Below are positions 7,492 through 10,197 of a stretch of DNA of 32,000 bases, piece by piece; position 1 is the stretch's first letter, and the number at the start of each line of letters is the position of its first letter. Origin of the DNA: Gemmata obscuriglobus (lineage in GTDB: Bacteria > Planctomycetota > Planctomycetia > Gemmatales > Gemmataceae). The notes under the pieces were generated by a model. That model was not told the DNA's origin. It saw only the letters and a program-made list of their open reading frames with translations, and did no database searches. Made by a program: the position numbers and the translations under genes. Location: positions 1,260,001 through 1,292,000 of the forward strand of contig NZ_CP042911.1 of NCBI RefSeq assembly GCF_008065095.1, read 5' to 3'.

Positions 7492-7724
7492 TGTGTTCGT
7501 AAACACGAAGCCGCGACCGCCCGTCCATTCCGCCACCGTTTCTTAGCCGGCTGCGCGTTCCACACGGCTGCTGACGCGGGCGGGTGTAACGCCGTGCATG
7601 CAGACCAACCGCGCGCCCGGTGGCACATCACAAATTTCCCGCGAACCTCTCCCGCCCCCCACTCTCCTTATCAACGAACGCCGAGCGAGCGGGCCGCACC
7701 CAACGCGGCCGGCTTACAAACACC

Positions 7725-7805
7725 TTCCCCTCATAAGGGAGTGGCCGCTGGTTCGAATCCAGCCCCCTCGACTACCGGGGGGTAGCTCAGTGGTAGAGCA
7801 CTCAA
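7725..7805 (+). ncRNA. Circularly permuted tRNA-like module 1 (Met/Ile2-like, anticodon-loop sequence CUCAUAA)
   Basis: Elements in order:
- anticodon arm TTCCC-CTCATAA-GGGAG (7725-7741)
- T-arm GCTGG-TTCGAAT-CCAGC (7747-7763)
- 3' acceptor strand CCCCTCG (7764-7770)
- 5-nt loop ACTAC
- 5' acceptor strand CGGGGGG (7776-7782), giving 7 bp including one G-U
- D-arm TAGCTCAGTGGTAGAGCA (7783-7800)
No CCA is encoded. Confidence 0.65.
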
Positions 7806-7903
7806 AGTGTCAATCGCCTGCACGACTCGTGCGGCCCGCTCGCCCGGCGTTCATCGCACTGATTCGGAGACAGCCCGTACCCTACGGCGGAAGCGTACAA
7901 ACC

Positions 7904-7978
7904 CTTTTAATCTGTTGGTCACAGGTTCGAATCCTGTCCCGCCCTCTGGGCGGGTAGCTCAATCGGTAGAGCAACGGA
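7904..7978 (+). ncRNA. Circularly permuted tRNA-like module 2 (Lys-like, anticodon-loop sequence CUUUUAA)
   Basis: Elements in order:
- loop CTTTTAA (7904-7910)
- anticodon-stem 3' strand TCTGT (7911-7915)
- variable region TGGTC
- T-arm ACAGG-TTCGAAT-CCTGT
- 3' acceptor strand CCCGCCC (7938-7944)
- 3-nt loop TCT
- 5' acceptor strand GGGCGGG (7948-7954), a perfect 7 bp
- D-arm TAGCTCAATCGGTAGAGCA
- anticodon-stem 5' strand ACGGA (7974-7978), which pairs with TCTGT
The rejoined sequence closely resembles bacterial tRNA-Lys(UUU). Confidence 0.7.
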
Positions 7979-8063
7979 CAGTTTCACCGCTTCACGAACT
8001 TGTACGGGCCTATTTTCAGACAACCGGGGCCAGTCCGTACCCCACAGGGGAAGCGTACAAACC

Positions 8064-8151
8064 AATAAGTTTCAGCACGCGAAAGCGTATGCGGGTTCGA
8101 CTCCCGCCGGCGCCCGCACGGGCGCCGTGGCGAAACGGTATACGCACTGAA
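8064..8151 (+). ncRNA. Circularly permuted tRNA-like module 3 (type II, Leu-like; loop AAUAAGU reading UAA at positions 34-36)
   Basis: Elements in order:
- loop AATAAGT (8064-8070)
- TTCAG (8071-8075)
- long variable arm ACGC-GAAA-GCGT
- T-arm GCGGG-TTCGACT-CCCGC
- 3' acceptor strand CGGCGCC (8108-8114)
- short loop
- 5' acceptor strand GGCGCCG (8121-8127), extendable to 8-9 bp
- Leu-type D-arm TGGCGAAACGGTATACGCA
- CTGAA (8147-8151), which pairs perfectly with TTCAG. Confidence 0.65.
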
Positions 8152-8239
8152 GAGTTTCAACCGCTTCCCGGACTTGTACGGACCGCTTTCTCGAACACCG
8201 AACCAACCCGTACCCGACGTCCGCCGGCGTACACACTTT

Positions 8240-8330
8240 ACGGTCTCGAAAACCGTCGATCGGGCGACCGATCCGTGGGTTCGAATCCCACCTCCTCCAC
8301 CTCGGGGGAGTGGCCGAGTGGTTGAAGGCA
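8240..8330 (+). ncRNA. Circularly permuted tRNA-like module 4 (type II, Ser-like, anticodon-loop sequence CUCGAAA)
   Basis: Elements in order:
- complete anticodon arm ACGGT-CTCGAAA-ACCGT (8240-8256)
- variable arm GATCGG-GCGA-CCGATC
- T-arm GTGGG-TTCGAAT-CCCAC
- 3' acceptor strand CTCCTCC (8292-8298)
- 5-nt loop ACCTC
- 5' acceptor strand GGGGGAG (8304-8310), giving 7 bp with one G-U
- Ser-type D-arm TGGCCGAGTGGTTGAAGGCA (8311-8330). Confidence 0.7.
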
Positions 8331-8398
8331 ACGCCCCGCAAGGGGAGTAAGTGTCCCGGAAGGGACTCGCCGACGGAACTTGTACGGGTGGACTTTCA

Positions 8399-8424
8399 CG
8401 GCCGCGCCAGCGGCCGTTTTCTTT
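8399..8424 (+). terminator. Intrinsic terminator closing the tRNA-like array
   Basis: 7-bp GC stem CGGCCGC / GCGGCCG with loop GCCA, followed by TTTTCTTT (8417-8424). It lies about 30 nt upstream of the next gene's start. Confidence 0.7.
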
Positions 8425-8454
8425 GGACGGCCCTGCTTGAGGAGGGCGACGGCA

Positions 8455-10197
8455 ATGGAAATGACGAAGGGCGAAATCGATTTGCGGCTGTCGATGCTGA
8501 ACAGCCTGCTCACCTGCCCGCACCGCAAGCTCGGGCTGGTCCACCCGCTGCACGCCGAGCTGGTGAAACAGGACCCGCGGTTCTACGTCCGCCTCGCCGC
8601 GTGGTACAGCGACCACGGCGACGTGCGCGACCACAAGGAGATGTTCATCGTCACGCTCGCGCTGAGCACCTTCCCGGGCCACCGGGACGTGGGGCTCGCG
8701 ATGCTGCGCGAGCTGCCGCCGTACCAGGTCGGCCGCGTCGTCGACTTCATCCACGGGCGCAAGGAAGACGTGTCGATCGCGGTGGACAAGAAGCCGGACG
8801 ACGTGCCGGCCGGCGCGTTCAAGCCGAAGAGCAGGAGGGGGGCGCGGGGGGAACCCGTAGGGGGTTCCCCCCCGAAAGGGGACCTGAAAGCGTCGCGGGG
8901 CAAGAAGCCCGGCAAGCCGAAGCGGGCTGAAGGTGGGACGGTCACGCTCACGGACGAGTTCGGGCTGTTCCGCAACGTGCCGCGGTCGCTGAAGACCGAG
9001 GTGACCCGCTACCTGCGCGAGCGGGAGGCGAACCCGGACTGGTTCGACGCCACCGCGATCACCGCGCGCAAGACGCTGAAGCGGCTGTACGCGCTGCTGC
9101 ACGTCAAGCCGGGGCCGCGCGCCCAGGCGGTGCTGTTCGACGAAACCCCGCCGCCGGGGTCGAAGCTCGCCGGGCTGAAGGAGCTGGCGAAGGCCGGGTC
9201 GCCGGAGGAGCAGGCGCGGCTCGTCGCCGCGCACGCGGTGCCGTTCCGCGTCGCGATCGGGCTGGTGAAGGGGAACGCCCCGGTGGTGCTGGGGGCGCTG
9301 GTGGACCGCATGTCGCCGCAGGAGGCGATCAACAACCTCGACATGCTCCGCAAGCGCGGCGCATTTGACGACGCGGGCGTGAAGGCGCTGATCGAGGCCA
9401 AGCTCGACGCCGCGAAGACGGCGACCCGGGTGAGCGCGTTCAAGGCCGAGAAGGCGCTGGAGAGCGTGCCCGTGAGCGCGGAGGTGCGGCAGAAACTCGA
9501 GGCCGTCGCCGACACGCAGGTGAAGGCGCGGGGCCGGATCGCGCGGCCGACGGCGCTCTTGATCGACAAGTCGGGCTCGATGAGCCAGGCCATCGAGATC
9601 GGCAAGCGGCTCGGCGCGCTGCTGGCAGCGGTCGCGGACAAGGGGCTGTTCGTGTACGCGTTCGACTCGATCGCCTACCCGGTCGAAGCGGCCGGACCGG
9701 AGGCAGGAGGGGGGCACGGGGGGAACCCGCGGGGGGTTCACTCCTCGGATCTGAAAGGGGGGCACGGGGGGAACCCGCGGGGGGGTCACTCCTCGGACCT
9801 GAAAGCGTGGGAAGTCGCGCTGACGGGCATCACGGCCGGCGGTAACACCTCGGTCGGGGTCGGCATCGACCAACTGCGGCGGAAGAAGCAGTACGTCGAG
9901 CAGATCGTGGTGGTGACCGACGAGGGCGAGAACGCCGAGCCGAAGTTCGTCCCGGCGCTGCTGAAGTACCGCGAGGAGCTGAAGGCGGACCCGACCGTTT
10001 ACTTCGTCAAGGTCACGGGGGCGACCTCGCAACTGGAGGACGAGTGCAAGCGGGCCGGGATCATGACGGACGCGTACCAGTTCAACGGGGACTACTACGC
10101 GCTGCCGAACCTGGTGCCGCTGCTGGCCCGGCCGAGCAAGCTGGAACTGTTGCAGGAGATCCTGGAGTACCCGCTGCCCGCGCGGCAGATGGAGTAA
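8455..10197 (+). CDS. rsr: Ro60/Rsr-like protein: N-terminal alpha-helical TROVE-like region plus C-terminal vWA domain with a MIDAS motif
   Basis: ATG at 8455 is preceded by GAGGAGGG. The C-terminal vWA domain has MIDAS DKSGSMS, then [27 protein letters not shown] and VYFVKV. Order and spacing parallel Ro60 (DVSxSM, GGTDC, TDNET, ALxxYR). N-terminal helices ([33 protein letters not shown]) parallel the Ro60 HEAT-like ring as I remember it. The gene symbol is by analogy only. Confidence 0.65.
8834..8892 (+). repeat. G-rich palindromic repeat copy 1, inserted in frame in the Ro60-like CDS
   Basis: Sequence GGAGGGGGGCGCGGGGGGAACCCGTAGGGGGTTCCCCCCCGAAAGGGGACCTGAAAGCG. It contains an 11-bp inverted repeat, GGGGGGAACCC / GGGTTCCCCCC. 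Its ends match those of the copies at 9706-9806. Confidence 0.75.
9706..9806 (+). repeat. G-rich palindromic repeat copies 2 and 3 (tandem, 48-nt period), in frame inside the vWA domain of the Ro60-like CDS
   Basis: GGGGGGCACGGGGGGAACCCGCGGGGGG(T)TCACTCCTCGGAYCTGAAAG occurs twice with a 48-nt period (16 codons). It is translated as [16 protein letters not shown] then [16 protein letters not shown]. Confidence 0.8.

Follow-up and report, generated by a model that had tools for sequence, protein, structure and literature searches.

A probable Ro60-type ribonucleoprotein locus with an array of four YrlA-like RNAs in Gemmata obscuriglobus

Analysis of a 32,000-nucleotide (nt) stretch of the Gemmata obscuriglobus genome (contig NZ_CP042911.1, positions 1,260,001 to 1,292,000 of the forward strand; here called the window and numbered from its first letter) revealed a locus that, with a probability of a little over 80%, is a bacterial ribonucleoprotein (RNP) locus of the Ro60 type. 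It would combine a divergent, ring-shaped homologue of Ro60/Rsr with four Y RNAs of the YrlA class. The RNAs are encoded by an array of four tRNA-like modules at 7676-8386, and the protein is encoded by a gene at 8455-10197, immediately downstream on the same (forward) strand. A first-pass annotation of this DNA had proposed a Ro60(Rsr)/Y RNA locus at this place, and that proposal is supported by profile homology to Ro60 and by full-length structural matches. Array and gene are present close to where they had been placed; the array starts at 7676, 14 nt before the proposed 7690, since the closing stem of the first module begins there.

The Ro60/Y RNA system has long been studied, is best known from human autoimmunity and is functionally unclear. 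Bacterial Ro60 proteins have been studied in few species, and surveys of them started from TROVE-annotated proteins. YrlA RNAs, which are circularly permuted and tRNA-like, bind Rsr; their genes share a strand with rsr and lie no more than 4 kb from it (PMC4201824; bioRxiv 10.1101/312249). Binding of Y RNA and of misfolded RNAs characterises Ro60/Rsr proteins, and YrlA RNAs are characterised by tRNA modifications (pseudouridine 55, dihydrouridine) and by association with Rsr in vivo.

Predicted fold and homology of the protein

The open reading frame at 8455-10197 encodes 580 amino acids (aa) and begins with an ATG at 8455. This start matches the equivalent methionine of the homologues; a 100% identical database protein is annotated with a later start. 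The protein comprises a helical-repeat (TROVE-like) region at about aa 1-355, a vWA domain at about aa 360-545 and C-terminal helices.

The structure was predicted with AlphaFold (AF2). When the deep alignment of profile A3 (62 diverse relatives) was used, the model reached a predicted local distance difference test (pLDDT) score of 87.7 and a predicted template modelling score (pTM) of 0.80, with disorder only in two lineage-specific insertions. This model replaced one from a shallow alignment, which had a pTM of 0.40 and gave low template modelling (TM) scores. Foldseek comparison of the A3-based model with the PDB returned Ro60, Rsr or TROVE proteins as all of the top 12 matches, with 579-622 aligned columns and a TM to target of 0.48-0.66. 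The best match was the Ro60 of Thermus phage phiLo (PDB 9KOP, 9L5Y; 0.66 for 9KOP), followed by human Ro60 and Deinococcus Rsr (both 0.58) and Xenopus Ro60 (0.48-0.51). Identity to the Deinococcus and metazoan proteins in the structural alignments was about 13-15%. Generic vWA proteins matched about 1000-fold more weakly, over about 220-250 columns and in the C-terminal domain only.

Searching profile A3 against PDB sequences gave significant matches to every solved Ro60/Rsr, namely human RO60 (E = 1.8e-17), Xenopus Ro60 (3.8e-13), the Thermus phage phiLo TROVE protein (2.1e-12) and D. radiodurans Rsr (1.8e-9). The next matches were generic vWA proteins at E = 5.7e-4 or weaker. The alignments span the MIDAS and reach back into the helical region; with the phage protein they cover profile positions 23-399. 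A profile restricted to the N-terminal residues 1-352 matched only the phage TROVE protein among 177,635 PDB sequences (E = 0.014, 17.8 bits, two collinear segments), so that the best structural match is also the best N-terminal one. The MIDAS residues D371, S373, S375, T465 and D489, together with Met1, are the only invariant columns in the 62 sequences, and these five residues align with those of Ro60. Four of the five motif correspondences proposed in the first-pass annotation recur in the profile alignment to human and Xenopus Ro60, where DKSGSM aligns with DVSASM, GGTS with GGTDC, TDEGEN with TDNET and KYxxE(M) with EYRKKM. The Pfam model vWA_Ro60 (PF25045) did not match the window protein. 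It matched 15 of the 62 relatives at E <= 0.01, and relatives about 60% identical to the window protein exceed its cut-off (30.7 and 29.5 bits versus 27.7). Profile homology and predicted structure together indicate that the window protein is a genuine, highly divergent Ro60 homologue with a helical-repeat ring and a vWA/MIDAS fold.

The two disordered insertions differ in composition. A tandem duplication of 48 nt x 2 at 9708-9805 (forward strand; TRF score 182, 96% match) lies in the vWA domain and encodes a doubled Gly/His-rich unit of about 16 aa within the insertion at aa 419-440 (pLDDT < 50); this insertion is missing from homologues of about 532 aa. The other insertion, at aa 123-158 (8821-8928; pLDDT < 50), is rich in Lys, Arg, Gly and Pro, lies between two beta-strands of the helical-repeat region and varies in length across the family.

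Architecture of the RNA modules

The four modules, M1 to M4, share one order of elements. From 5' to 3', the 5' strand of a closing stem is followed by a UACAAAC box, an anticodon-position region, a variable loop or arm and a T arm of the GGUUCGAAUCC type. The 3' acceptor strand comes next, then a short loop, the 5' acceptor strand, U8-N9, the D arm and the 3' strand of the closing stem. A permuted tRNA-like domain composed of a T arm, a closed 7-bp acceptor hairpin and a D arm is therefore present in all four modules. In minimum free energy (MFE) folds of the window modules the two ends pair into a long stem, as they do in YrlA. The closing-stem ends of neighbouring modules are 18-19 nt apart, and all four modules lie on the forward strand.

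M1 (7676-7852, YrlA-like) has a 24-bp closing stem (7676-7699/7829-7852), an inverted repeat that is 96% complementary, and carries the UACAAAC box. Its anticodon-position region forms a local hairpin at 7725-7741 (UUCCC-CUCAUAA-GGGAG), and the permuted core lies at 7747-7801. M2 (7871-8011, YrlA-like) is nearest to the canonical layout. It is closed by the helix GCCCGUAC/GUACGGGC, has a second stem (GGAAGCG/CGCUUC) and a core at 7921-7974, and its anticodon-like stem is formed by distal strands (ACGGA/UCUGU). M3 (8031-8185) is of type II and Leu-like, with the closing helix GUCCGUAC/GUACGGAC, the core at 8091-8146, a long variable arm, a 3-bp D stem and a distal anticodon-like stem (CUGAA/UUCAG). 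M4 (8204-8386), the last module, is of type II and Ser-like. Here the closing helix is ACCCGUAC/GUACGGGU, the core lies at 8275-8330, the variable arm at 8257-8274 and a local anticodon-position hairpin at 8240-8256 (ACGGU-CUCGAAA-ACCGU), and two additional hairpins stand 3' of the D arm. The MFE fold of M4 shows a near-complete cloverleaf unaided. The anticodon-position stem is thus a local closed hairpin in M1 and M4 and is built from distal strands, as in canonical YrlA, in M2 and M3.

ARAGORN found no tRNA gene in the native window sequence. When the modules were un-permuted, at hand-defined natural junctions only, ARAGORN called a complete tRNA in each: Met(CAU) for M1, Lys(UUU) for M2, Leu(UAA) for M3 and Ser(CGA) for M4. 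The Leu and Ser forms showed the expected type II features, long variable arms and 3-bp D stems. Brute-force un-permuting with 504 junction constructs per module was discarded as too permissive to assign the identities of M2 and M3. In the sensitive mode of Rfam, YrlA (RF02553; gathering cut-off 69 bits) was the only credible family for the array. Its match to M2 covered the full length and scored 51.6 bits (E = 1.7e-10); M1 reached 41.4 bits (E = 1.5e-7), whereas M3 (18.7 bits) and M4 (15.5 bits) matched weakly. The Rfam tRNA model reached at best 25.7 bits (cut-off 29), and only by bridging two modules.

Conservation and covariation of the modules

A covariance model of the 56-nt permuted core was built from the four window modules and used to search 80 orthologous loci. 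The window modules themselves, from which the model was built, scored 69.3 (M1), 68.2 (M2), 61.7 (M3) and 69.2 bits (M4). Arrays of up to 15 modules, which this search at first suggested for some relatives, were rejected: 70 of the 204 core-model matches bridged adjacent genuine tRNA genes. Such matches were weak and combined the T arm of one tRNA with the D arm of the next. The tRNAs called by ARAGORN were therefore masked before modules were counted, which gave a range of one to four modules.

Among 84 distinct modules, 94.2% of the cells in the core were paired, against 66.8% after shuffling and 43-52% with slid partners, and all seven pairs of the closed acceptor hairpin showed compensatory changes. 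The 7-bp closing helix abutting the ACUU box was fully complementary in 71 of the 84 modules, against 19% for shuffled flanks, and occurs in 34 variants, e.g., CCCGUAC/GUACGGG, GCCGCAC/GUGCGGC, GGCGCGC/GCGCGCC and AGCGCAU/AUGCGCU. Compensatory evolution was seen in the three core helices and in the closing helix. RNAalifold, applied to six full-length M4 orthologues independently of the core model, found 14 of 51 pairs to be compensatory. It recovered most of the architecture, namely the closing helix, a second stem, hairpins for the acceptor and for the anticodon position, and the variable and T arms; the D arm was not recovered.

The order of the modules is kept within Gemmataceae, with the M1 type first and the Ser-like M4 type last. 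Orthologues of M1 stand in first position in L001, L003 and L007-L012 (loci are numbered with the prefix L), and L002 has a similar module. Orthologues of M3 occur in L001, L003, L005, L006, L008 and L009.

The closing helix abuts a conserved box, 5' CCCGUAC-CC-AAC... / 3' ...ACUU-GUACGGG (box CCCGUAC/ACUUGUACGGG). The two-stranded consensus of the clade reads 5' CCCGUACCCaACggCa.aAGCyUACAAAC and 3' ...GCGACUUGUACGGG. ACUYGU was found in 65 and CGYAYCC in 62 of 85 modules, against a background of about 4%. The looser CGAA core of the published Rsr-contact motif showed only mild enrichment (30 of 70 modules versus 22% background). A different RNA box beside a very divergent protein would be the expected outcome of co-evolution at the interface.

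Linkage of modules and gene

The modules of the window lie 69-780 nt upstream of the ATG at 8455, on the same strand as the Ro60-like gene and, as reported for YrlA, within 4 kb of it. Their number, four, equals the maximum seen upstream on the same strand. After masking, 134 module matches remained, 122 of which were upstream of the gene on the same strand; the density was 0.51 per kb upstream on the same strand, 0.026 per kb downstream and 0.008 per kb antisense. Of the 74 loci whose upstream sequence extended over 400 bp or more, 57 had one to four modules on this side and strand, with a median of 160 nt between the last core and the start codon. Conservation of the array next to orthologues, on which the first-pass annotation had made its reading depend, was therefore found, and the conserved modules covary. 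Modules and gene are linked across phyla.

The Ktedonobacterales locus L071 is the only clear exception to linkage on one strand, with five permuted modules upstream on the opposite strand (812-3066). Modules downstream of the gene on the same strand occur in L079 (7474-7970), L073 (5793-6094), L025 (5734-5785) and L055 (5750-5800), instead of or besides upstream ones, an arrangement like that in Salmonella.

A putative terminator separates the array from the protein gene, in keeping with the first-pass annotation. A terminator scan identified a hairpin of the intrinsic-terminator type, ACGGCCGC-GCCA-GCGGCCGU (8398-8417), followed by UUUUCUUU, the whole element spanning 8398-8425 on the forward strand. 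About 30 nt separate its T-tract from the ATG, and a putative ribosome-binding site read from the sequence, GAGGAGGG, lies at 8439-8446, 8 nt 5' of the ATG. In 21 of 47 loci, compared with 3 of 240 controls, a terminator-like hairpin with a T-tract follows the last module and precedes the start codon, and a GGCCGC...GCGGCC element is common to all Gemmataceae loci (L001-L011).

This layout would also be expected if the array were mainly a cis-acting leader or attenuator that, together with its terminator, sets the expression of the Ro60-like gene, either by autoregulatory binding of the protein or by sensing tRNA-binding factors. The short distance between modules and gene on one strand, the recurrent terminator and the fact that no separate promoter was detected for the gene speak for such a function. 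Known Y RNAs, however, adjoin rsr on the same strand as well and are nevertheless stable and trans-acting (PMC4201824; PMC12135203). Moreover, each of the one to four modules is closed by its own stem, which gives them the look of separable units; those of the window are 18-19 nt apart, and more than half of the loci have no recognisable terminator. A predominantly cis-acting array is therefore improbable, and a leader function is in any case compatible with an Ro60-type RNP.

The anticodon-position hairpin

A local hairpin at the anticodon position was found in 38 of 85 modules (about 45%), compared with 15% after shuffling. The 14 strictest hairpin loops keep the frame of an anticodon loop, with U33 in 14, Y32 in 13 and R37 in 13 of them. 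Positions 34-36 of these 14 loops hold 13 different triplets, and among M4 orthologues the loops read CU-CGA-AA, CU-UUU-AA, CU-CAA-AA and CU-GAA-AA. In L009 and L010 the hairpin is lost. The first-pass annotation had described the array as a mimic of four different tRNAs. This fits the four module types well, and each was called as a tRNA once un-permuted; because the triplet varies among orthologous modules and the hairpin is sometimes lost, the amino-acid identities are not conserved and are probably not meaningful.

The same data bear on whether the modules could be circularly permuted tRNA genes, matured by joining of the ends and opening of the acceptor loop by RNase P/Z, with the protein acting as a processing or chaperone factor or being unrelated. 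The permuted tRNA genes of Cyanidioschyzon merolae likewise place the 3' half before the 5' half, close the acceptor stem with a loop and have transcript ends that pair. In addition to the complete tRNA calls for all four modules, the retained U33, Y32 and R37 and the position of modules at the end of genuine tRNA arrays in relatives would fit this possibility, and the acceptor stems of 7 bp have the length at which YrlA of Mycobacterium smegmatis receives an RNase P cut and CCA (PMC4201824). The C. merolae genes, in contrast, give functional tRNAs with conserved anticodons by means of a eukaryotic/archaeal splicing endonuclease, and bacteria are not known to have a bulge-helix-bulge splicing endonuclease (10.1101/312249). 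In the modules the triplet drifts even between M4 orthologues, the hairpin is missing from more than half of all modules, M2 and M3 lack a closed anticodon loop, and the acceptor loops encode no CCA. The flanking stem and box, which are the best-conserved part, would be discarded sequence if tRNAs were the product. It is thus very unlikely that the array encodes functional tRNAs.

Genomic context in the window and in relatives

The neighbouring genes in the window look unrelated. Upstream, a gene for a zinc-type alcohol dehydrogenase/quinone oxidoreductase ends at 7274; downstream, a gene for a DUF1559/prepilin-type protein lies on the opposite strand. Between the dehydrogenase gene and the RNA array lies a perfect inverted repeat of 35 bp (7410-7444 and 7457-7491, separated by a loop of 12 nt) with a higher AT content than the adjoining DNA; it could act as a terminator in both directions or as a palindrome to which a protein binds. 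ARAGORN found no genuine tRNA gene in the window or in the Gemmataceae loci, and accordingly no tandem of five or more such as defines a long tRNA array (L-array).

The family is large. Among the candidates scored, 2,540 matches were found, with 1,452 representatives after clustering at 50% identity, and members of the clade occur in the genomes of at least 598 species. Those with a database name are called "hypothetical" or "vWA domain-containing" and nothing else. The clade occurs in Planctomycetota, Cyanobacteriota, Chloroflexota, Armatimonadota and other phyla, as well as on jumbo phages and one megaplasmid, so that an extension of the Ro60 system to "a planctomycete", as first suggested, was too narrow. 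The cyanobacterial homologues P0271-P0390 are 82-97% identical across Nostoc, Kovacikia, Oscillatoria, Planktothrix, Cyanothece and other genera. This identity is unusually high and is consistent with recent horizontal spread together with tRNA arrays.

Outside Gemmataceae, genuine tRNA genes accompany the gene in a part of the loci. In 11 of 80 genome loci (L035, L036, L039, L040, L042, L043, L046, L052, L053, L055 and L063, examined over 4 kb upstream), 7-24 tRNA genes stand directly upstream on the same strand. These loci belong to Phycisphaerae, Tepidisphaerales, Pirellulales and Armatimonadota, and in them the true modules lie between the last tRNA gene and the Ro60-like gene. Megaplasmid pA of Kovacikia minuta (L082) carries 33 tRNA genes (1450-5466), one module and the Ro60-like gene, which is immediately followed by a gene of the PolyA_pol/CCA-adding type (7439-8239; PF01743, 67 bits). 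The clade is also carried by the uncultured phage LR756511.1 (L081, 595 kb) and by six IMG/VR contigs (L083-L088), five of which are 97-390 kb long; all of these phage sequences have tRNA genes upstream of the Ro60-like gene, and most have modules. Within the tRNA array of L055 (Armatimonadota), an 83-nt segment between tRNA genes (3614-3696) matches bacterial 23S rRNA (model positions 1077-1160) with 54.3 bits, above the Rfam cut-off, and may mimic a fragment of rRNA or be a remnant of one.

L-arrays are reported to be horizontally transferred, to be induced by translational stress and to have RNA-processing genes such as rtcB at their flanks (PMC8421152); such induction is known in Anabaena. 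A term search of that study found no mention of a Ro60-like neighbour or of tRNA-like RNAs. A kinship with Anabaena all4315, a stress-induced gene reported beside tRNA arrays, could not be confirmed from protein names.

A second association concerns the genes downstream of the Ro60-like gene. In 42-46 of the 80 loci, a conserved protein of about 300 aa (X300) and a ThiF/E1-like protein of about 215 aa (PF00899) are encoded there on the same strand, and a Prok-JAB protein of about 140 aa (PF14464) joins this set in at least 22 loci. Examples are L013 (5730-7814), L048 (2814-4917), L079 (5654-7382) and L082 (9413-10913). X300 had no match in Pfam, PADLOC or PHROG, and the best PADLOC match of the ThiF/E1-like protein was the E1 part of E1-E2 of the cyclic oligonucleotide-based antiphage signalling system (CBASS). 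The set is absent from Gemmataceae loci, and tblastn with X300, JAB and ThiF found no match in the window (best E = 0.25).

Mobility of this kind, on a megaplasmid, on jumbo phages and beside horizontally transferred tRNA arrays, together with the missing TROVE match and the bare database names, could suggest a vWA/MIDAS protein of the generic kind, whose helical N terminus is unrelated, beside modules that are decaying tRNA pseudogenes, both being cargo of mobile tRNA-array elements; this is the least probable explanation of all, given the full-length and exclusive structural matches to Ro60, the significant profile matches reaching the helical region, compensatory evolution in core and closing helices that is not expected of pseudogenes, and the conserved module order and linkage of modules and gene in Gemmataceae, which have no tRNA genes at all.

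Weighing of the Ro60-type interpretation

Several results weigh against a Ro60-type RNP. The Pfam TROVE model (PF05731) matched neither the window protein nor any of 62 diverse family members. For the window protein, no Pfam match, VWA included, was obtained at E <= 1 except a spurious MAP2 match, and none was obtained with NCBIfam. PADLOC and single-sequence PDB searches with this protein returned nothing, and in particular no solved Ro60. A profile of close relatives (A1) was not significant against the PDB (E = 0.24); only the diverse profile A3 worked. The match of the N-terminal profile is specific but weak, indeed marginal, and the ring half rests mainly on predicted structure. At the gathering threshold, Rfam reported nothing in the window, and YrlA was likewise absent at threshold in 15 related loci. 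The published motif GNCGAAN0-1G, a proposed Rsr contact near the 5' end of YrlA, was found in 4 of 85 modules, against a background of 11%. Seventeen of the 74 loci had no module by the core model. A promoter scan of the window found none with a sigma-70 consensus, which may not fit planctomycete promoters. Finally, no gene for rtcB or PNPase, the known Ro60 partners, was seen in the window, as the first-pass annotation had stated correctly as far as this was checked.

With respect to the protein, the matches of the predicted structure are full-length and exclusive to Ro60, and they close the gap that the weak N-terminal sequence evidence leaves. A protein with neither a TROVE match nor structural similarity, a generic vWA protein only, would have refuted the first-pass reading; this outcome did not occur. 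The designation as a TROVE/vWA gene held for the predicted fold, with Ro60 in all top 12 PDB positions, and failed for the Pfam TROVE and VWA models. The YrlA comparison made at the outset fared similarly: the permuted tRNA-like domain, the stem formed by the ends and the linkage to the gene agree with it, and the Rfam cut-off and the contact motif do not.

Relation to known Ro60 and Y RNA systems

The closest known systems include the Rsr/YrlA systems of Salmonella Typhimurium (rsr-yrlBA-rtcBA) and M. smegmatis, as represented by RF02553. The locus shares with them a Ro60-fold protein (here predicted), RNAs encoded on the strand of the gene and a few hundred nt from it at most, a stem formed by the 5' and 3' ends, and a permuted tRNA-like domain with T and D arms and a closed acceptor stem; loci with several Y RNAs also occur in these systems. 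In contrast to Rsr, the Gemmata protein fails Pfam TROVE and all curated models. In contrast to YrlA, the Gemmata RNAs score no higher than 51.6 bits, where the cut-off is 69, and have, instead of GNCGAAN0-1G, the box CCCGUAC-CC-AAC / ACUU-GUACGGG; about 45% of the modules carry an extra local hairpin at the position of the anticodon arm. Up to four modules, non-identical and in a fixed order, precede the gene here, whereas in Salmonella two RNAs follow rsr; rtcBA is not adjacent.

A ring protein together with a closing stem whose conserved bulged helix involves both strands is also found in the Rsr-Yrn1-PNPase complex (RYPER) of Deinococcus radiodurans and in metazoan Ro60-Y RNA complexes. 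The module 3' strand ACUUGUAC appears to resemble the ACUUGAC-type strand of metazoan Y RNAs (hY1/Y3). In Deinococcus, several small RNAs are encoded upstream of rsr (PMC4201824). The effector end of the modules is a complete tRNA-like fold, whereas that of Deinococcus and metazoan Y RNAs consists of loops and stem-loops.

Phage phiLo encodes two Y-like RNAs (Yrl1/Yrl2) directly upstream of its Ro60 gene (PMC12135203). The Gemmata-type clade is also phage-carried; unlike the Gemmata protein, the phiLo protein is annotated with a TROVE domain. The phiLo Yrls were found by a CGAA motif and were not described as tRNA-like (PMC12135203). Relatives resemble L-arrays (PMC8421152) in that 7-33 tRNA genes of the same strand end next to the Ro60-like gene, which thus stands 3' of them, also on the cyanobacterial megaplasmid, whereas the window and all Gemmataceae loci have permuted mimics only.

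Proposed function

If the locus is a Ro60-type RNP locus, the four modules would be transcribed as one precursor from a promoter upstream of 7676 to the terminator at 8398-8425, with possible regulated read-through of this terminator into the gene. The precursor would be cut in the 18-19-nt spacers to give four RNAs of about 140-185 nt, and the 24-bp duplex of M1 is a plausible RNase III site. In Xenopus, Y RNA bound to the outer surface of the ring gates the access of other RNAs to Ro60. The closing stem and box of each module RNA may, by analogy, bind the outer surface of the Ro60-like ring, and the tRNA-shaped end may tether the ring to a tRNA-recognising partner or mimic a tRNA substrate. 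We infer co-transcription, processing, binding of stem and box to the ring and the tether or decoy role from the corresponding systems of Xenopus, Deinococcus, Salmonella and phage phiLo.

The neighbours of the gene in relatives, namely tRNA arrays, one nucleotidyltransferase of the CCA-adding type and the JAB/E1-like set, suggest that the system does not serve in housekeeping and that it surveys or turns over tRNAs and further structured RNAs when translation is stressed or a phage attacks. A wider and tentative proposal, which we regard as possible and still rather doubtful, concerns the clade as a whole, with its roughly 1,450 clusters at 50% identity and its presence in at least 598 species. 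The Y RNAs of the clade would be complete permuted cloverleaves with a free-running anticodon triplet, coupled outside Gemmataceae to L-arrays, to the CCA-adding-type enzyme and to the set of unknown, JAB and E1-like (ubiquitin-like conjugation type) proteins. Together these parts might form an unrecognised tRNA-centred surveillance or conflict system, in which tRNA decoys would guide or gate the Ro60 ring as it acts on tRNAs in translational stress or phage infection. Gemmata would then have a reduced form with the RNP core only.

Significance

Ro60/Y RNA complexes and YrlA permuted-tRNA mimics beside rsr are known already, and the system is therefore not categorically new. New here is a clade that escapes the models by which both the protein and the RNA are defined, with a different box that would serve in binding, a fuller tRNA mimic and ordered arrays of up to four modules. 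The association of Ro60 with tRNA arrays, or of TROVE with a JAB/E1 set, is probably unreported; no description of either was found in the searchable literature.

The results uncover a large Ro60 clade that is invisible to TROVE annotation, and thereby widen the known range of the system. The clade supplies many natural sequence variants of a putative protein-RNA interface. Its repeated association with tRNA arrays of the stress-induced kind, with an enzyme of the CCA-adding type and with the JAB/E1 set provides a testable lead on the purpose of the tRNA-like end of bacterial Y RNAs.

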